A stretch of 64,000 nucleotides of DNA from Bryobacterales bacterium (GTDB taxonomy: Bacteria > Acidobacteriota > Terriglobia > Bryobacterales > Bryobacteraceae), in assembly GCA_963752695.1 (NCBI GenBank), contig CAVVZB010000001.1, positions 430,989 through 494,988 of the forward strand, read 5' to 3'. Shown here piece after piece: positions 35,370 through 45,948 of the stretch (position 1 is its first letter; the number at the start of each line of letters is the position of its first letter). The notes under the pieces were generated by a model. That model made no database searches, was not told where the DNA came from, and was given only the letters and a program-made list of their open reading frames with translations. The translations under genes were made by a program, and so were the position numbers.

Positions 35370-37202
35370 ATGTGCGGCATCGCGGGGTTCATCGAGGCAG
35401 GTCAGGCGGAATGGGCAGGAAATGCCGTGCGCGCAATGGTATCGGCCCTTCAGCGGCGCGGCCCCGATAGCGAAGGCATCCACGCGTGGGCCGATGCGAC
35501 GCTGGGACACCGGCGTCTTGCGATTCTCGATTTGAGCCCAGCCGGCGCGCAGCCCATGCTCTCCGCGGACGGAACGGTAGGACTGGTCTTCAACGGGTGT
35601 ATCTACAATTTCCGGGAGTTGCGGCGGGAACTCGAGTTATTGGGAATTGCTTTCCACTCGCATTGCGATACCGAGGTGCTTCTCGAAGGCTACCGCGCGT
35701 GGGGCATTCGTGAGCTCACACGCAAGATTCAGGGCATGTTCGCCTTCGCCATCTGGGATGCCCCTCAGGAAAAGCTTTTTCTGGTGCGTGACCGGCTTGG
35801 GGTCAAGCCGCTGGTCTACGCGGCAGCTGGCAACCGCATCGCCTTTGCATCCACCATCGATGCTCTCCGCGCAGCCAAGTTGACCGGCGCGGTCGATGCC
35901 GATGCCGTCTTGCAGTTTCTGGAATTCGGCTTCGTTCTGGATACCTCCAGCATTTTCGAAGGCGTCCAAAAGCTGCCCCCAGCGACCGTTCTGGAGTGGC
36001 AGGGCGGCCGCTTTGAGACGTATACCTATTGGGAACTGCCGGAGCCTTCTGCTGAGGCGGGGAACTTCGAAGACGCGGTGGATCGGACCGAGAGCCTTCT
36101 TGTGGAAGCGGTCCGGATGAGGCTGGTTGCCGATGTGCCGGTTGGGGCGCTATTGAGCGGCGGCATCGATTCCACCTTGATTTGCTGGGCGATGGCGAAG
36201 CTGAACGCGAACATCACGGCATTCACAGTCGCGGCCCCGGGAGACGCCGACGACGAGGCGGGCGCGGCGGCGATGACGGCCCGCGCTTTAGGAATCGATC
36301 ACTGTGTGGTTCCTCTGCCGGAAGCCGCCCCGGTCGTGATCGACAACTTGATTGCGGCCTTTAGCGAGCCGTTCGCCGTACATTCGGCGCTCGGTATGCT
36401 GCTGGTGTCGCAGGCAGTTCGGCCGAGGGCGAAAGTCCTGCTGACCGGCGATGGCGGTGATGACGTTTTCTTAGGCTATCCGTTCCTGCATAACGCGTGG
36501 CGCGCTCAGCGCGTAGCTGGATTGCTCCCGCCAGGTGCGGGAAGCCTCTGGGGAGCCATGCGAGGTTTGGTCCCCTGGCGGCGCGCGCGCAATTTCCTGG
36601 ATTACAGCACCGCCGGTTTGGCGGGACACGCTCAAGCCCACGACGGCCTTCCCTGGTTCGAGGCGCGCGGTCTACTGGGGCCGCAATTGCAGGGCCGGGC
36701 CTTAGCGGCGCGGTCCATGCAGGCGAGTTCCGAATCAGCCAGGAGCCTGCTCTCCGAGGTGCTGCGCTATCACCAGAACACGCATTTCACCAGCGAATTC
36801 CTGCCGAAGGTGGATGGTGGAACCATGTACCACGGGATCGAGGCGCGTTCGCCGTTGCTCGATCAGGCGCTCTGGGAACTGGCGGCTTCGCTTCCGTACA
36901 GCTTGCGCATGCGAGGCGGAGAGTTGAAGGCTGTTTTGCGCGCCATTGTCCGAAAGCGGGTAGGGCCGCAGATCGCCAGCCGCAGGAAACAAGGGTTCTC
37001 CATTCCGCTAGAACGGCGGCTGGCCGGAGCTTGGAAACAGGAACTGAAGTCGCTCACCGGCGTCACACTACTTGAAGAACAAGGATGGCTCTCCGCCGGT
37101 CAACTTCGCAGGGTCGTGGACGAGGCGCAACAGGCGAGCGCGGTGCCCGTTCAGATCTGGCGTCTCCTGGTGCTGGAACGCTGGCTTTGCAGCCGGACTT
37201 AA
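35370..37202 (+). CDS. asnB: Asparagine synthase (glutamine-hydrolysing)-type amidotransferase, probably amidating polysaccharide uronates
   Basis: MCGIAG N-terminal nucleophile, HRRLAILDL, RDRLGVKPL, LSGGIDS, TGDGGDD, RRKQGF. Confidence 0.92.
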   Translation: MCGIAGFIEAGQAEWAGNAVRAMVSALQRRGPDSEGIHAWADATLGHRRLAILDLSPAGAQPMLSADGTVGLVFNGCIYNFRELRRELELLGIAFHSHCDTEVLLEGYRAWGIRELTRKIQGMFAFAIWDAPQEKLFLVRDRLGVKPLVYAAAGNRIAFASTIDALRAAKLTGAVDADAVLQFLEFGFVLDTSSIFEGVQKLPPATVLEWQGGRFETYTYWELPEPSAEAGNFEDAVDRTESLLVEAVRMRLVADVPVGALLSGGIDSTLICWAMAKLNANITAFTVAAPGDADDEAGAAAMTARALGIDHCVVPLPEAAPVVIDNLIAAFSEPFAVHSALGMLLVSQAVRPRAKVLLTGDGGDDVFLGYPFLHNAWRAQRVAGLLPPGAGSLWGAMRGLVPWRRARNFLDYSTAGLAGHAQAHDGLPWFEARGLLGPQLQGRALAARSMQASSESARSLLSEVLRYHQNTHFTSEFLPKVDGGTMYHGIEARSPLLDQALWELAASLPYSLRMRGGELKAVLRAIVRKRVGPQIASRRKQGFSIPLERRLAGAWKQELKSLTGVTLLEEQGWLSAGQLRRVVDEAQQASAVPVQIWRLLVLERWLCSRT

Positions 37203-38473
37203 AACGGTCGTACGATCGTGGCCCCGTAAGTCAGCGTAGGTAGAGCGACGTTGCCGCCGCTGAAATTGCAAACGCGAATTGCGACTACGCCCGCAGCACT
37301 TACCCGCGCCATGCCGAAGAATCCCGCTGGCAAAGCAGGCCATCCTGGTACCACGCTGTCAGTCACTTGCGCGCCCGGCAGGGGAACGGTAAGTTCCCCG
37401 CTGCAAGCAGCCGTGTTCACGGTAGGAAACGTTAGCGGGGCTGAGCCTGCGATGGCCGTTGCTCCCATTCCAACCCCGCCCGAGCCGTTAACCGAACATC
37501 TTCCACTTTGCGGCGTGGCGAATTTGACCGTGACGTTGTACGTGGCCGGATCAATCGTAATCTGGCCCGGTTCAATCAGATTCGCTGGCGCGGCGTTATC
37601 ATAGCAACTCACCAGCAGGTTCGCAGTATTCAGATTGTGCTGGGTGCCCGCAATGGACAGCAAAGTGGTTCCCGTGAATGCCACGCTGTAATTAGGCGGC
37701 ACCTGCAGGGTTGTGGGCGTCCACGTACTATTCGTATTACTCCAACTCAAAAGCTGACCGCTAATCGGCGCGGCGCTGGAAACCGTTCGACCTTGTAAGC
37801 CCGCAACCGTAAGCGCGGCTGGCGCGCCGTTCACGTCGCCTCCAATCGCCACAGGCTCCCAGAAACCGGTCATGCCATTGAACTTGAGGAGTTGCCCATC
37901 GGTGGGGGCGAGCGATGAAACACCGCGGCCCTGCAGACCATTGACAGTCAGAGTCGACGGGTTGCCGTGGACATCGCCCGCCAGTGCGGCCGGCTCCCAA
38001 ACATTGCTGCCCGCGTTGAAGCGAAGCAGCTGGCCGTCTGTGGGTGTCGCCGTCGAAAGAGTTTTCCCGCGAAGCCCGCCGACCGTAAGAGCCGAGGGCG
38101 CGCCGCTCACGTCGCCGCCGATGGCTTGCCACACCGGATTACTCCCGTCCGTGCTCAGCAACTTGCCTGCGTTATTCAGTTCTGTGGGTACGAGACTGGA
38201 CTGCGGCACAGCTCCACCTTGAAGCGCCCAAGTGTTGGCAGCAGCGCAGACATAAAGGTTTTGTCCGGCGGGCGCCGAGCTCAGGAAGAAAAACTCTCCT
38301 TGGCCGCAGCTCGCGGGAAGTGTCGAGCCCATTCGGGCCGGTTTAGTTGCCGTGGCAGCGCTGAAGTCGACGCTCCTGGTCTGATTGCGCAGATCGAGCT
38401 TACTCTGACTGCCAAGCGGCGCCGCGCCTAAAATCAATATTGCGGAGCAACTCCGCATCACTCTTAAGTTCAT
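37199..38473 (-). CDS. Secreted fibre-like protein with three 46-aa repeats, 424 aa
   Basis: Start ATG 38473 (SD-like AGGTAGGG), signal peptide, Cys-pair module, three tandem GDVxG..TVxGLxG..PxxGQLLx(F/W)..WxP repeats, beta-rich C-terminal domains with Cys pairs. Confidence 0.8.
   Translation of the reverse strand: MNLRVMRSCSAILILGAAPLGSQSKLDLRNQTRSVDFSAATATKPARMGSTLPASCGQGEFFFLSSAPAGQNLYVCAAANTWALQGGAVPQSSLVPTELNNAGKLLSTDGSNPVWQAIGGDVSGAPSALTVGGLRGKTLSTATPTDGQLLRFNAGSNVWEPAALAGDVHGNPSTLTVNGLQGRGVSSLAPTDGQLLKFNGMTGFWEPVAIGGDVNGAPAALTVAGLQGRTVSSAAPISGQLLSWSNTNSTWTPTTLQVPPNYSVAFTGTTLLSIAGTQHNLNTANLLVSCYDNAAPANLIEPGQITIDPATYNVTVKFATPQSGRCSVNGSGGVGMGATAIAGSAPLTFPTVNTAACSGELTVPLPGAQVTDSVVPGWPALPAGFFGMARVSAAGVVAIRVCNFSGGNVALPTLTYGATIVRPF
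37706..38119 (-). repeat. Three tandem 138-bp (46-aa) repeats
   Basis: GGDVSGAPSALTVGGLRG... / AGDVHGNPSTLTVNGLQG... / GGDVNGAPAALTVAGLQG... Confidence 0.9.
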
Positions 38474-38604: not shown

Positions 38605-41034
38605 TCACCCTGCCGCCACAAACTCCTGAGCCGGAAAGATCATCTCAAAGTCAGTTCCGGAATGGTTGCAAAATTGGAACGTCCCGGCCAGTTGATGGGA
38701 AAGTATCTGCACGATTTTCAAGCCTAGGGTGTCCGACTTGGTCCAATCTAAAGCCGCGGGGATGCCGACCCCATCGTCTTTGACAGTGAGATGGAAGTTC
38801 CCGACGTCGTCCCGGGCGAAACCTACCCGGATCGTGCCAGGGCGGCCTTGCGGAAATGCATACTTAAACGCGTTCGAGAGAAGCTCGTTCAGAATCAGGC
38901 CGCACGGGATAGCTGTGTCGATCGGAAGCTCAATCGGGTCGGCCTCGATTTTTACGGCGATTCGCTCGGGTGACGCAAACGCCGTATAAAGTTCGTTCGC
39001 CAGCGTTTCAGCGTACTCGTCAAAGCACACCCGGCTGAGGTTCTTGGTTCCGTAGAGATGCTCGTGAATCAGCGCCATGGAGTAGACGCGCCGCTGACTT
39101 TCGAGCAACGGCTTCAGAGCGTCTTCGTTCTGCACAACGTCGGCTTGCATCTCCAGCAGGCTGGCCACTACGGTGAGATTGTTCTTCACCCGATGATGCA
39201 CCTCTTTCAGCAGAACCGTCTTTTCGGCCAGCGCGCTTTCCAGCCTTTCGGAGCGCTCCGCCAAGCCGATCTCCAGCCGCTTCCGCGCCGTAATATCCGT
39301 GGCCACTTTAAGGAAGCCGACCACATTTCCACTGCCATCGCGGATCGCGCTGGTGGAAAGACTAACAAATAGAGTGCTGCCGTCTTTCCGTACATAAGTC
39401 CATTCGCGCTCGCCAGTTCGCCCCGCGATCACTGGCGCCGAGAAGACCTCAAAGCCCTCGATATTACGCCCTAACTGCTTACCGACAATAATGGCTTGCT
39501 CGCGGCGCTCTTCGACGGTATGGAACTGGACAGGCGTGTAGATCCCGATCACTTCGTCCGCCCTGTATTGCAGCATCCGCTCCGCGCCAGGGTTGAATAT
39601 CGAAATGATCCCCTTGGGATCTGTGACAATAATCGCCACCTCCGTTGCACTCCTCACGATGGCGGAAAGATAGGTTTGACTTTCCGCGAGAGAGTGATTC
39701 AGCAGCACCAAACTAGCTTCGGCCTCTTTGCGGTTCGTAATGTCGAGAACGAACGCGATGCCCCCGCTGGAATCAACGTTTGTAACGGCGGCTCCTAACT
39801 CAACGGAGACGCGGCTTCCATCTTTCCGAAAGAACTCTTTTTCGACAGGCTTGGCGGCGCCAACACGCTGTAACTGTTCGAGCACGTCTTGATCCTGCGC
39901 CAAGTACTCGGCGGGCGTGAGTGCAACCCAATCTAACGTGCCAGCCTGCAAATCCTGTTTGTCATAACCGATAATCTCCAGGAACTTTCCGTTGCAATCG
40001 AAGATGGCGCCGTCGGGCTTCCAGTGAAAAACGCCCATCAGATCGGACTCATAAAGAGCCCGTTGCCGCTCCTGGCTTCGGCGTTGGTCCTCCACGTCCG
40101 TGTTCGTCCCTACCCACCGGACCACGCGCCCCTCACGGTTTTTCACTGGCGCCGCGCGCGTGGTAAACATGCGAAAATTGCCGTCCGCGCCTCGCAGCGG
40201 GAACTCCATCACCCATTGCGCATCGGATTCCAAGGCCCGTTTCCACTGGTCCAACACGATATCCAGGTACTTGGGGTCGTGCACCGCCTTCCAGCCCCAA
40301 CCTTGCATTTGTTCCGGCGTCGTCCCGGTGTACTCGTACCAGCGTTGGTTATACCAGTAGATCCAGCCATCAGCGTCCCCAACCCAGGCAAGCTGTTGGA
40401 TCGAATTGGCGATCAACTGGAAGTCACTCTCGCCCAAGTGGTTATAGCGGGCGTTGGTTCGCTCAAGTTGTTCTATGGTGGAGGCGAGCTGGGAGTCGAC
40501 GCGGGCCAGTTCCCCAGTCTGCGTATGCAGCAGGCCTTGCAACTCTTCGTTCAGACGCCGGATTTCCTGTTCGGAAAGAGAGCGCTCCGCGGCTTGCCTG
40601 AGCAGACTCACATTGGCTGCTTCCAGCCGCGTCTGACGGTCGGTTGAGACTTGAGCCTCGACGATCATCTGCATCACTTTTGGAATAGCTCTCGGCAGCA
40701 TGAAGGCAGTAGTCACCGAAGCGGCGGCCGTGACCATCTTGACCGCGCCGGAAAGCCAATACAGGGGAGTCCAGACCGTCCACACCTCCATCAGGTGGGT
40801 GCCGCCGCAAGCGATGATAAAGGTTCCAAAAGCCAAAAAGAGCCAGTGGAAGGGTATGTCACGCTGTGCCCGGCGAACCAGCATCCATAGCGTTACGGAA
40901 ATTGCTATGTACGAGAGGCCGATGAGCAGGTCGCTAGTTACGTGAATCCCCACCAAAGCTGGGTTCCACATATAACAGTGCCCATGCGAGAGGAATGCAT
41001 GGGCGTCAAAGAATCGGTGGATGAACTTAGGCAT
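38605..41034 (-). CDS. Sensor histidine kinase: ethylene-receptor-like 3-TM domain + 3 PAS + HisKA_2 + HATPase
   Basis: SDLLIGLSY, FGTFIIACGGTH, KMVTAAAS; PAS/PAC repeats; EVHHRVKNN; ELLSNAFKYAF, DDGVG, LGL. Confidence 0.9.
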   Translation of the reverse strand: MPKFIHRFFDAHAFLSHGHCYMWNPALVGIHVTSDLLIGLSYIAISVTLWMLVRRAQRDIPFHWLFLAFGTFIIACGGTHLMEVWTVWTPLYWLSGAVKMVTAAASVTTAFMLPRAIPKVMQMIVEAQVSTDRQTRLEAANVSLLRQAAERSLSEQEIRRLNEELQGLLHTQTGELARVDSQLASTIEQLERTNARYNHLGESDFQLIANSIQQLAWVGDADGWIYWYNQRWYEYTGTTPEQMQGWGWKAVHDPKYLDIVLDQWKRALESDAQWVMEFPLRGADGNFRMFTTRAAPVKNREGRVVRWVGTNTDVEDQRRSQERQRALYESDLMGVFHWKPDGAIFDCNGKFLEIIGYDKQDLQAGTLDWVALTPAEYLAQDQDVLEQLQRVGAAKPVEKEFFRKDGSRVSVELGAAVTNVDSSGGIAFVLDITNRKEAEASLVLLNHSLAESQTYLSAIVRSATEVAIIVTDPKGIISIFNPGAERMLQYRADEVIGIYTPVQFHTVEERREQAIIVGKQLGRNIEGFEVFSAPVIAGRTGEREWTYVRKDGSTLFVSLSTSAIRDGSGNVVGFLKVATDITARKRLEIGLAERSERLESALAEKTVLLKEVHHRVKNNLTVVASLLEMQADVVQNEDALKPLLESQRRVYSMALIHEHLYGTKNLSRVCFDEYAETLANELYTAFASPERIAVKIEADPIELPIDTAIPCGLILNELLSNAFKYAFPQGRPGTIRVGFARDDVGNFHLTVKDDGVGIPAALDWTKSDTLGLKIVQILSHQLAGTFQFCNHSGTDFEMIFPAQEFVAAG

Positions 41035-41068
41035 CGGCGAAGGTCTCCTCGCGGTTTAATCGCCCCGC

Positions 41069-43021
41069 TTACGGGTGGTTGCCAATACGTTGGACCTTAT
41101 TCAGCAAGAGGCTGACCTGCTCCAGCAGTTGATTCTGGCGAAATGGTTTGCGGAGCAGCGTGACTTGGTCGGGATCAAGGTCGTGATCCCGCAGCAGATC
41201 CCCGGAAAAGCCCGTAACGAAGATCGTCTTCATCGCCGGACTAACCATGCGCAGACGCTTGCTGAGCTCCGGACCGGTCATCTTAGGCATCATCACGTCG
41301 GTGATCAGTAGATCCACCGCGTGCTTTCCCGCCGCTGCTACTTCAAGCGCCTGCACGCCCGATTCCGCTGTCAGCAGCTGATACCCGCTTGCTTCGAGAC
41401 TCGACACTAAAACCCGAAGTACGGCTGGATCGTCATCCACCACCAGAAGCGTTCGGTCATCCGCCTCCACAGACAATTGTTTCTCCGGCGCGGGTACGGC
41501 CTTTGCGTCTCCATTGGCGCGCGGCAGGTAGATTGTGAAGGTGCTTCCCAGGCCAGGCTCGCTGTCGACGTCGACGCTTCCGCCCAAGTCGCGAACGATT
41601 CCATCGACAATGGAAAGCCCCAGCCCGGTTCCCTTGCCCGCGAACTTGGTCGTGAAAAATGGCTCGAACAGATGTTCGGCCGTTTTGGCGTCCATCCCCT
41701 TACCGGTGTCTTCCACAATCAGAGCCACGTAGCGGGTGACCTGACTGATCGAAGCTCCCTGGCTTTCCAGATCCACGTTGCGCGTTTGGATCGTCAAGTG
41801 ACCGCCGTCCGGCATCGCGTCGCGCGCATTGGTGATCAGATTCATCAGGACTTCGGTCAGGGCCGTCGGATCGGCGCGAACCAATCCGAGGTTCGGCGCC
41901 AGCGAACAACTGAAGCTGATATCGGGTCCTAGCAGGTGAAGGCTGAGATCCTCCAGATTGCGGACCACGTCATTCATGTTGACCACGCTCGCTTCCATGC
42001 TCTTCTTGCTGCTGAAAGTCAGCAGCTTGCGCGTGATATCAGCCGCCATTTCGCCCGCTTGAATGATCTGGTTGAGCGATTTAGTCAGCGCGGGATTGGC
42101 TGGAAAATTGGCCAGCGTCACCTCCGCTGTTCCTAGAATCACGGTCAGAAGATTGTTGAAGTCATGCGCCACGCCAGCGGCCAGACGTCCCACCGCCAAA
42201 ATCTTGTGATCGTGCCGGACCTCTTGCTCTTCCATCAAACGCTCGCTCGCGTTGCGGAACGTGATGACCGCGCCGGCCGTGCCGCGATCGTCTAGGCTCG
42301 GAGCGATCTCGCAATCGATGGGGAAGGTGGCCCCGCTTACATGCCGGGCTTCCACGTTTCGTGGGAGCGCGCTCGGGCTATTCTGCATGATGGCTTTCAG
42401 CAGCTGCTTGTTCATGGAGAGCTCAAGGCTTGGGTTAACCAGCGGCAATACGCGCGCGATGGGCTGTCCGGCTGCCTCGCTCGATTGCCAACCCGTTAAC
42501 TGCTCGGCGTGCGCATTGAGGAATTGGACCATCCCCAGCGCGTCGCTCACAATCACGCCATCTTCCATGCTCGCCAGGACCGTGTTCAGCCATGCCCGCT
42601 GTTGACGAAGCTCGGTTTCCACCCGGTGGCGGAATAGCGCGATCTCAATCGCCGTGAACAGATTAGCCTGTTGCACCGGCTTCGGTAAATAAGCGAATGG
42701 CTCCGTGATCTTCGCCCGGTTCAGCGTCTCCACGTCGGAGTGCGCCGTGAGATACACCACCGGTATCTCGTACAGTTCCTTTACCCGCTCGGCTACTTCG
42801 ATCCCGTTCATTCGCCCGCTCAGATGAATGTCCATCAGGATAAGCTGCGGGCGCAGATCGGAAACCTTCTCTAGAGCCTCTTCTCCGGAACCGGCAATAC
42901 CGGCAACTTGGTACCCGGCCCGGCGTAAGCTCGTTGCGATGCTATGGGCAATCAGCCCCTCATCTTCAACGACGAACACTCGGGCTTGAGTATTCTCCAT
43001 CTGGGTCATCGGTTGCGCCAA
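41069..43021 (-). CDS. Hybrid sensor kinase REC-PAS-HisKA-HATPase-REC
   Basis: VVEDE..LMDI..KP; AHDFNNLL; EPFFTTK..GKGTGLGL; VDDD..LITDV.MP..KP. Confidence 0.92.
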   Translation of the reverse strand: MAQPMTQMENTQARVFVVEDEGLIAHSIATSLRRAGYQVAGIAGSGEEALEKVSDLRPQLILMDIHLSGRMNGIEVAERVKELYEIPVVYLTAHSDVETLNRAKITEPFAYLPKPVQQANLFTAIEIALFRHRVETELRQQRAWLNTVLASMEDGVIVSDALGMVQFLNAHAEQLTGWQSSEAAGQPIARVLPLVNPSLELSMNKQLLKAIMQNSPSALPRNVEARHVSGATFPIDCEIAPSLDDRGTAGAVITFRNASERLMEEQEVRHDHKILAVGRLAAGVAHDFNNLLTVILGTAEVTLANFPANPALTKSLNQIIQAGEMAADITRKLLTFSSKKSMEASVVNMNDVVRNLEDLSLHLLGPDISFSCSLAPNLGLVRADPTALTEVLMNLITNARDAMPDGGHLTIQTRNVDLESQGASISQVTRYVALIVEDTGKGMDAKTAEHLFEPFFTTKFAGKGTGLGLSIVDGIVRDLGGSVDVDSEPGLGSTFTIYLPRANGDAKAVPAPEKQLSVEADDRTLLVVDDDPAVLRVLVSSLEASGYQLLTAESGVQALEVAAAGKHAVDLLITDVMMPKMTGPELSKRLRMVSPAMKTIFVTGFSGDLLRDHDLDPDQVTLLRKPFRQNQLLEQVSLLLNKVQRIGNHP

Positions 43022-43179: not shown

Positions 43180-43192
43180 TTGACTTACAAGT
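43180..43192. repeat. 13-bp direct repeat TTGACTTACAAGT, copy 1
   Basis: Exact match to 44008-44020. Confidence 0.85.
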
Positions 43193-43917
43193 TAGCTTGA
43201 TCCGGCGACCAGACGCTTCAGTTCCGCCGTCTTGTCCGGGTCAAGCAGATTGTTCGACTCGGCAAGCTCCAGGATCTCCGCTGCAGCCATTCGAACCTGC
43301 GCCTTCGATAGAGGCGCCTTCTCGATTAGCTTGGACTCATTGTGCTTAGCCGTCGCGAGTTCCGCGCGCCGAAGCTGTTCCGTGTACCAGCGCAGCGAAG
43401 CGCAAATGGCGGCTGAAAATTCAGCGGCGCCATGGCTGGTACGTTCACTCTGCTCGAGCCGCAATTCCCGCCGTATCTCAAGCAGAACCTGCGTGGCCCT
43501 GGCTGCGCACCGGCTGAGTGTTTCGAACACGTTGGACTTCGCGCATTCGTCCCGGTAAGCGTAAGCCTGTGAGACAATCGTCTCGGTTACGGCGTCAGTT
43601 TGGCGATCGCTCTTGGCGCTGTTGTCCAAGCGGTCCGCATTCAGGAGGTTACACTCCAGCGCGCTCGCCCGATTGAGCCACCAGTTCGCGTCAATCACCT
43701 TCTGCGCCAGCTGCTCCTCGTGATAACCCACGGGCTGCAGAACCTTCAGATATGCAATTGCGCTACGAAGGTACGCGATTACCTCGCCCGCCGGCATGAA
43801 CTGCTTTTGGCCGGAGATGGCATTCTCAAAACCTTGCATCTCGATTTTCTGTTTGCCACTGGGCTTTTGTCCCGAAAGCGCGGCAACCTGTTGTAATAAA
43901 TCGGAAGAGCTGTTCAT
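43192..43917 (-). CDS. Hypothetical helical protein, 241 aa
   Basis: AAAGGGG SD before ATG 43917; LQPVGYHEEQLA..WWLNRA..LE motif; lies between the two 13-bp repeats. Confidence 0.7.
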   Translation of the reverse strand: MNSSSDLLQQVAALSGQKPSGKQKIEMQGFENAISGQKQFMPAGEVIAYLRSAIAYLKVLQPVGYHEEQLAQKVIDANWWLNRASALECNLLNADRLDNSAKSDRQTDAVTETIVSQAYAYRDECAKSNVFETLSRCAARATQVLLEIRRELRLEQSERTSHGAAEFSAAICASLRWYTEQLRRAELATAKHNESKLIEKAPLSKAQVRMAAAEILELAESNNLLDPDKTAELKRLVAGSS

Positions 43918-44007
43918 GACAACCCCCTTTCTGATCCGACGGTACATGGACAGACAGGAGCGCGGGCTTACTTCACCCGTAAGTGACTGGATTCGCTAAG
44001 AAGATAG

Positions 44008-44031: not shown

Positions 44032-45948
<1,917 letters not shown>

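Follow-up and report, generated by a model that had tools for sequence, protein, structure and literature searches.

Perception of ethylene by bacteria has been shown for two proteins only, SynEtr1 (Slr1212/UirS/PixA) of Synechocystis PCC 6803 and AzoEtr1 of Azospirillum brasilense Sp7 (PMC11819568, PMC6682694), and other predictions rest on seven residues defined in the Arabidopsis receptor AtETR1: Asp25, Tyr32, Ile35, Pro36, Ile62, Cys65 and His69. As the work of Wang 2006 is reported in PMC6586836, all seven are required for ethylene binding by AtETR1, and Pro36 is one of the seven whose substitution by alanine abolishes that binding. PMC11819568 and PMC6682694 judge by the same residues whether a domain is functional. 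Here we describe a sensor kinase gene of a Bryobacterales bacterium in which six of these residues are kept and the proline is replaced by serine. It lies in a 64,000-nucleotide stretch of DNA (the window; assembly GCA_963752695.1, contig CAVVZB010000001.1, positions 430,989 to 494,988 of the forward strand), and its serine is the trait of a large, conserved branch of the ETR1-type domain family.

Like the window protein, AzoEtr1 is a bacterial membrane histidine kinase with an N-terminal, three-helix ETR1-type domain; both are two-component sensors of soil bacteria, and the gene neighbourhood of AzoEtr1 points to a two-component system (PMC11819568). Residues 1-130 of AzoEtr1 bind ethylene saturably (PMC11819568). 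The two proteins differ in that AzoEtr1 has all seven residues, the proline included, whereas the window protein has Ser46, three PAS domains, a HisKA_2 transmitter and a hybrid-kinase neighbour. SynEtr1, for which ethylene binding is proven, and GeiEtr1/2 from Geitlerinema also keep all seven, and carry a single N-terminal Cys before the first transmembrane helix (TM1) where plants have two (PMC6682694). Their middle parts (cyanobacteriochrome/GAF or PAS-GAF) and their classical HisKA domains are unlike those of the window protein, and their outputs concern phototaxis and biofilm. AtETR1 itself matches the window protein at D25, Y32, I35, I62, C65, H69, K91, T94, S98, A102 and P110, and differs from it in Pro36 (Ser in the window protein), in Val106 (Pro) and in the N-terminal Cys4/Cys6, in place of which the window protein has an HxxC motif. 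Unlike AtETR1, moreover, the window protein has no GAF domain and no receiver domain, and its transmitter is of the HisKA_2 type.

The gene is an intact open reading frame of 809 codons (809 residues) with its ATG at 41034. The Pfam family ETR1_N (PF25487) matches residues 27-123 at 117.7 bits (E=2.7e-34), the cut-off being 27 (122.5 bits in a scan of the whole genome). The match spans positions 2-97 of the 97-position model and is a resemblance far past chance level. AtETR1 can be aligned with the window protein (E=1e-16; 31% of 103 residues identical), and in this alignment Asp25 corresponds to Asp35, Tyr32 to Tyr42, Ile35 to Ile45, Pro36 to Ser46, Ile62 to Ile73, Cys65 to Cys76, His69 to His80 and Lys91 to Lys99. 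The AtETR1 reference sequence used here is consistent in its numbering with all residues cited by number in PMC6586836, PMC11819568, PMC6682694 and PMC10266040. The roles of Cys65/His69, Asp25 and Lys91 are established for AtETR1, Lys91 being the partner of Asp25 in signal relay (PMC10266040). The features of the gene and of its sensor domain are as follows.

38605..41034, minus strand: whole gene, membrane sensor histidine kinase comprising a Ser-type ethylene-binding-type domain, a coiled-coil linker, three PAS domains, HisKA_2 and HATPase_c (open reading frame; Pfam, NCBIfam).
40963..41034, minus strand: N-terminal segment, residues 1-24, probably periplasmic, with H17-G-H-C20-Y-M-W; not covered by the Pfam match, which begins at residue 27.
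40666..40956, minus strand: ETR1_N ethylene-binding-type domain, residues 27-123, three transmembrane helices (Pfam PF25487; AlphaFold2; hydropathy).
40930..40932, minus strand: Asp35 codon GAC (ETR1 Asp25); Asp in 219 of 219 Ser-type domains.
40897..40899, minus strand: Ser46 codon TCC (ETR1 Pro36), the sole required residue that is not conserved (codon read; alignments).
40795..40809, minus strand: C76-G-G-T-H80, predicted Cu(I) ligand motif of TM2 (ETR1 C65...H69; codons read).
40738..40740, minus strand: Lys99 codon AAG (ETR1 Lys91, partner of Asp25); Lys in 215 of 219 Ser-type domains.
40693..40695, minus strand: Pro114 codon (ETR1 Val106 position), cytoplasmic end of TM3, subfamily-specific and covarying with Ser46 (alignment).

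An earlier note on this DNA, made from the sequence alone, had described an ethylene-receptor-type domain with intact copper ligands on this gene. The reading frame and the motifs that it quoted (SDLLIGLSY, residues 34-42; FGTFIIACGGTH, residues 69-80; KMVTAAAS, residues 99-106) are all correct on translation, and CGGTH, residues 76-80, lies exactly at 40795-40809 when checked codon by codon. Its identification of the domain holds equally well, given the PF25487 match and the intact Asp35, Tyr42, Cys76, His80 and Lys99. The positions of Cys76 and His80 are invariant across all 120 nearest homologues. By the published criteria, the window gene is thus a member of ETR1_N that departs from the required set at one residue in seven, and it is not classed here as an ethylene receptor.

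The serine is not peculiar to this protein. Of the 120 nearest homologues, 119 have it at ETR1 position 36. When 1.84 billion representative proteins were searched exhaustively with phmmer, which is independent of shared words, the best 150 matches included 138 further proteins, with 99 Ser, 26 Pro, 9 Ala, 1 Thr and 1 Gly at this position and 2 proteins off-pattern. Among 300 aligned domains the covariation of Ser36 with proline at ETR1 position 106 (Pro114 in the window protein) is almost perfect: of the 219 domains with Ser36, the Ser-type, 213 have Pro at position 106, whereas 55 of the 63 Pro-type domains have Val, Ile or Ala there, and Pro is not among their three commonest residues. On these alignments Ser46 is a subfamily trait rather than a one-off. 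Named members of the Ser-type include cyanobacteria (Oscillatoria, Laspinema, Phormidium), Nitrospirota and Vampirovibrionales, and, among acidobacteria, Bryobacteraceae, Terriglobia, Pyrinomonadaceae and Thermoanaerobaculia.

A domain tree built with FastTree was read by unrooted split analysis, as midpoint rooting is misleading here. One split, with support of 0.93, sets 63 of 64 Pro-type domains, among them AtETR1 and a second ETR1-type protein from the same genome as the window, against 216 of 219 Ser-type domains, of which that of the window protein is one. The tree was made without the sequences of SynEtr1 and AzoEtr1, whose placement with the Pro-type rests on the published statement that they keep all seven residues. 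Across the 219 Ser-type domains D25, I28, Y32, I35, L39, F58, G59, I62, C65, G66, T68, H69, K91, T94, S98, A102 and P110 (ETR1 numbering) are each conserved in at least 97%, and the key columns from D25 through P110 are likewise conserved in the 63 Pro-type domains, implying that the metal and ligand site of the Ser-type is under the same constraint as that of the canonical branch. As judged from the alignment, the Ser-type branch differs from the canonical one by a single discrete, coupled change.

Other residues also occur at this position. The nine alanines (P0366, P0326 and P0340 are examples) represent P36A, the very change reported to abolish ethylene binding in AtETR1, and Gly, Thr, Phe, Cys, Val and Asn are seen as well in acidobacterial copies (L008, L009, L010, L004, L021).

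Where does residue 46 sit in the sensor domain? An AlphaFold2 model of residues 1-135, built with a 49-sequence alignment (predicted local distance difference test, pLDDT, 88; predicted template-modelling score, pTM, 0.72), has helices at residues 25-56, 63-85 and 92-134, the last of which, TM3, passes unbroken into the cytoplasmic linker. Hydropathy and positive-inside charges indicate an N-out, C-in topology. No match was returned at E<=1 by a sequence search of the PDB with residues 1-150, or at E<=0.001 by Foldseek of the model against the PDB. From the helical register, residues 35, 38, 42, 45/46 and 49 would share one face of TM1, and residue 46 would lie some three turns below Asp35, level with the invariant F69-G70 of TM2.

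The genome that holds the window (3.7 Mb in four contigs) has both types of domain. Its RpoB (L049:194-4519) shows 89-91% identity to proteins whose names refer to Bryobacteraceae, Acidobacteriia or Acidobacteriota metagenome-assembled genomes (MAGs); by this measure the host is an acidobacterium near Bryobacteraceae, in accord with the earlier note, which had called it a probable acidobacterium. The second ETR1_N gene, on contig 4 (G000; L001:1399-3063, also L050:7651-9315), encodes a 554-residue protein in which the ethylene-binding-type domain is followed by PAS, HisKA and HATPase domains; it scores 134 bits against Pfam ETR1_N, keeps all seven residues (YFVIPLAL ... FILACGTTH) and belongs to the AtETR1 clade. 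Its sensor domain is 46% identical to that of the window protein and has the same HxxC motif, and the paralogue differs in carrying one PAS domain and a classical HisKA against three PAS domains and HisKA_2. The flanking genes encode a carboxylesterase and an enoyl-CoA hydratase, with no signalling gene or regulator adjoining. By the published criterion this paralogue, rather than the window gene, is the better candidate for a predicted ethylene receptor. One further Acidobacteriota MAG, G302, similarly has one Ser-type and one Pro-type copy.

Is the window protein, then, a sensor of ethylene? On sequence grounds this is plausible, and we somewhat favour the view that it is a copper-based sensor of ethylene, or of a closely related small unsaturated gas, which signals by phosphorelay through the hybrid kinase encoded next to it (described below). 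A number of points weigh against this view. All receptors shown to bind ethylene are described as having seven residues of seven (PMC11819568, PMC6682694), with six kept here and Ser46 in the place of Pro36, and the window protein falls on the far side of the 0.93 split from AtETR1. In the searchable literature we found no paper that mentions the Ser36 variant or reports a binding test of a Ser-type protein. It could be the three PAS domains that carry the real input. No stand-alone response regulator adjoins the gene, the only receivers nearby being the two of the hybrid kinase, so that the output is a guess. ACC (1-aminocyclopropane-1-carboxylate) deaminase (TIGR01274) is absent from the genome, other ethylene genes not having been searched for, and no link with plants was found for this genome. 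The earlier note's suggestion that the protein may sense ethylene is supported in part: true homology to the ETR1-type domain stands, and the phylogeny of the domain, which the note had proposed as a check, sets the Ser-type apart from the AtETR1 clade. It had also known of no characterised example in this phylum, and we found no characterised acidobacterial receptor in the searchable literature.

The alternative that survives best leaves the copper site as it is and changes the signal. The Ser36/Pro106 branch might be tuned to something other than ethylene at hormone-like concentrations, candidates being another small pi-acceptor or alkene such as CO (carbon monoxide), propylene, acetylene or isoprene; in a second form of the same idea, it might bind ethylene, but much more weakly and with faster release, as a second channel beside the canonical paralogue. 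The discrete, coupled nature of the Ser36/Pro106 change, with its split support of 0.93, is consistent with such a shift, and the presence of both types in this genome and in G302 suggests non-redundant functions. Affinity can also vary widely in this family, since natural Asp25 to Asn variants cut it about 100-fold with function kept (PMC10266040, PMC11971883). However, all other residues lining the site are conserved as in the canonical branch, nothing points positively to another ligand, and the placement of residue 36 by helical register may suggest a role in packing rather than in ligand chemistry. Taking its two forms together, we regard this alternative as rather unlikely.

Just ahead of TM1 the window protein carries a His-x-x-Cys motif (H-G-H-C, residues 17-20, 40975-40986; consensus F-M-P-H-G-x-C-Y-L-W). 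His17 and Cys20 are invariant in the 49-sequence alignment, and the motif is found in 214 of the 219 Ser-type and 62 of the 63 Pro-type bacterial domains. It could be a site of copper entry or of dimerisation.

Alternatively, the signal might be no gas at all: the domain could report how much copper is available, or whether the bound copper or Cys76 is oxidised or reduced. The strictly conserved Cys, His and Asp would suit such a role, and the invariant His17 and Cys20 on the presumed periplasmic side could take up or sense copper. Against this, such action is not known for any member of the family, copper in AtETR1 is a cofactor and not the signal (PMC10266040), and the conserved hydrophobic pocket (I28, I35, I62, Y32) is better explained by a hydrophobic ligand. 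The strict conservation of the pocket makes this explanation less likely, and we consider it improbable.

Beyond the sensor domain, the window protein consists of a helical linker, three PAS domains and a complete transmitter, an architecture that Pfam and NCBIfam assign and that the earlier note had read correctly.

40420..40665, minus strand: helical linker between TM3 and the first PAS domain, residues about 124-205, the junction where sensor heads are exchanged (AlphaFold2; alignment with the CHASE3 paralogue described below).
40078..40407, minus strand: PAS domain 1, residues about 210-319 (PAS_4, PAS_3 matches).
39700..40068, minus strand: PAS domain 2, residues about 323-445, borders approximate (PAS_8 at 323-372; three stretches each of PAS_9 and TIGR00229).
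39286..39669, minus strand: PAS domain 3, residues about 456-583 (PAS, PAS_9 matches).
38983..39204, minus strand: HisKA_2 dimerisation and phospho-acceptor domain, residues 611-684 (PF07568, 89 bits, cut-off 22.3).
39181-39198, minus strand: H-box HHRVKN, of H-x-x-K-N type, residues 613-618 (motif located in the translation).
38626..38898, minus strand: HATPase_c catalytic domain, residues 713-803, with N-box NELLSNAFKY and G1 box DDGVG (PF02518, 42.7 bits, cut-off 26.4).

The H-box, N-box and G1 box are all intact, and on its sequence the gene encodes a real, intact sensor kinase with an ETR1-type copper domain that is probably functional. The transmitter is of the same type as that of the HWE/HisKA_2 kinases (LOV-HK and PhyK-type, Alphaproteobacteria), with which it shares the HxxKN H-box. 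Those kinases are mostly soluble or have LOV/PAS inputs. Orthology with PhyK was considered and rejected, as the NCBIfam PhyK model matches the C-terminal 210 residues at 108 bits, far under its cut-off of 750. The joining of an ethylene-binding-type head to HisKA_2 is seen in 4 of the 120 nearest domain relatives and in 6 other proteins found separately, and is thus a minority architecture, yet one that recurs in both the Ser-type and the Pro-type branches. Two orthologues on metagenome contigs, P0121 (57% identity) and P0123 (54%), have the same architecture as the window protein, and both have Ser.

The gene directly upstream encodes a hybrid kinase, and the order of genes around the pair is shared with a locus from another genome, L018.

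41045..41050, minus strand: Shine-Dalgarno-like GAGGAG, 10 nucleotides upstream of the ATG and inside the 34-nucleotide gap between the two kinase genes (read from the sequence).
41069..43021, minus strand: upstream partner, a 650-residue hybrid kinase with the order REC (receiver)-PAS-HisKA-HATPase-REC, probably co-transcribed (Pfam).
43192..43947, minus strand: conserved hypothetical gene of 251 residues upstream of the kinase pair, with no Pfam match; 49% identical to the L018 gene in the same position.
44032-45948: acs, in the same gene order as in L018.

The stop codon of the hybrid kinase gene lies at 41069-41071, and the 34-nucleotide gap to the kinase gene holds no terminator-like site; a scan for promoters and terminators, which found a number of sites at or below the shuffle expectation, was uninformative. 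In L018 the order is acs, a 236-residue hypothetical protein, a 650-residue hybrid kinase and the kinase with the ethylene-binding-type domain, as in the window, and the two hybrid kinases, each directly upstream of its partner, are 68% identical. The conservation of the hypothetical gene in this position argues against its being a recently inserted cassette. A collinear REC-PAS-HATPase gene also lies directly upstream of the orthologue in L019, with 31% identity to the hybrid kinase of the window. With a hybrid kinase upstream in three genomes, the gene pair is conserved and is probably one transcription unit. Both receiver Asp residues are present in the hybrid kinase of the window (LILMDIHL, LLITDVMMP), and we propose it as the relay partner because it offers the only phospho-acceptors nearby. 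In the L019 hybrid kinase (L019:392-2365), AHDFNN, with the His of the dimerisation and histidine phosphotransfer (DHp) domain, aligns to ATTLGY, and ITDVMMP, with the Asp of the second receiver, to LTGLLP; judged by these replacements, this partner looks degenerate and may be a pseudo-kinase or pseudo-receiver adaptor.

Directly after its ethylene-binding-type kinase L018 has a tandem paralogue (L018:10501-13194) with a CHASE3 head, a second gene that the window does not have. The transmitter of this paralogue (three PAS domains and HisKA_2) is 57% identical to that of the window protein, and the two align only from residue 201 to the end. The occurrence of CHASE3 on the same transmitter fits the view that the N-terminal module is an input head which can be swapped for another, the helical linker being the point of junction. 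That the ethylene-binding-type domain is a mere membrane anchor and dimerisation module, with the real signals received in the cytoplasm by the three PAS domains, would fit the PAS-rich body and long linker of the window protein, but appears very improbable indeed, given that the ligand and relay residues are all present and do not vary among hundreds of relatives, a strict conservation of the pocket that an anchor would not need, and that the head exchanged in L018 is a known sensor domain and not plain helices.

Just downstream of the kinase (37199-38473) lies a gene for a secreted repeat ('fibre') protein with no Pfam match. It has no detectable similarity to its positional counterpart beyond the L018 kinases, so that its place beside the kinase seems peculiar to this genome. 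An output in exopolysaccharide (EPS) production and biofilm formation, considered by analogy with SynEtr1 and AzoEtr1 and from the fibre gene and EPS locus downstream, was dropped, as the downstream gene of L018 is unlike the fibre gene.

If the window protein is a copper-based gas sensor, it would act as a dimeric histidine kinase of the inner membrane, the three N-terminal helices forming an ETR1-type sensor that holds copper(I). Cys76 and His80 on TM2 would hold the metal, with Asp35 on TM1, bridged to Lys99 on TM3, tuning the copper site. The copper would bind a small unsaturated ligand that is soluble in the membrane, ethylene being the most likely, and the signal would pass from TM3 through the long helical linker and the three PAS domains to HisKA_2, where autophosphorylation at the His of HHRVKN would be altered in one direction or the other; domain identity, residue conservation, the subfamily and the conserved gene pair are shown here, while copper binding, the ligand, the direction of regulation and the phosphotransfer partner we infer. 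The phosphoryl group would most likely go to a receiver of the probably co-transcribed hybrid kinase, as a putative partner in a branched phosphorelay. The Ser-type and canonical copies of this genome probably differ in affinity, kinetics or range of ligands.

Neither the family nor its spread is new, putative receptors having been stated already for several bacterial phyla (PMC11819568). The phmmer search gives 8,128 representative clusters with the ETR1-type domain at E<=1e-3, of which 5,712 are at E<=1e-10. Among 301 evenly sampled Acidobacteriota genomes, 15 have an ETR1_N match, 13 of them above the cut-off (roughly 5%). In species-representative genomes the named relatives are mostly Acidobacteriota, Terriglobales, Acidobacteriaceae and Sulfotelmatobacter MAGs, a few being Verrucomicrobiota or cyanobacteria, with isolate names (palsa and SPRUCE, for example) suggestive of peat or soil sources. 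With the domain widespread in bacteria, many Acidobacteriota MAGs included, its presence in this phylum is unsurprising. The value of the present case lies instead in the natural pair of Ser and Pro paralogues.

What the pair offers is a natural test, within one small acidobacterial genome, of the requirement for Pro36. A large and conserved bacterial branch breaks the seven-residue rule at one position, Ser36 being coupled with Pro106, and keeps all else. To our knowledge, earlier surveys kept only proteins with all seven residues. Whether Pro36 is required decides whether the Ser-type members, a large part of a family of roughly 8,000 clusters, are ethylene sensors.

It is possible, and we put it forward tentatively, that the Ser36/Pro106 proteins, which are widespread in Acidobacteriota, Cyanobacteria, Nitrospirota and other phyla, form a functional class of their own that senses gas at the membrane by means of copper. 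The proline required on TM1 in AtETR1 would then have moved to TM3, and the affinity, release kinetics or ligand would be different. If so, the seven-residue rule would miss or mislabel a large share of the family, and genomes with one receptor of each class would read two channels of volatile signal. This would bear on how abundant soil bacteria such as the Acidobacteriota read the volatiles of plants and soil.

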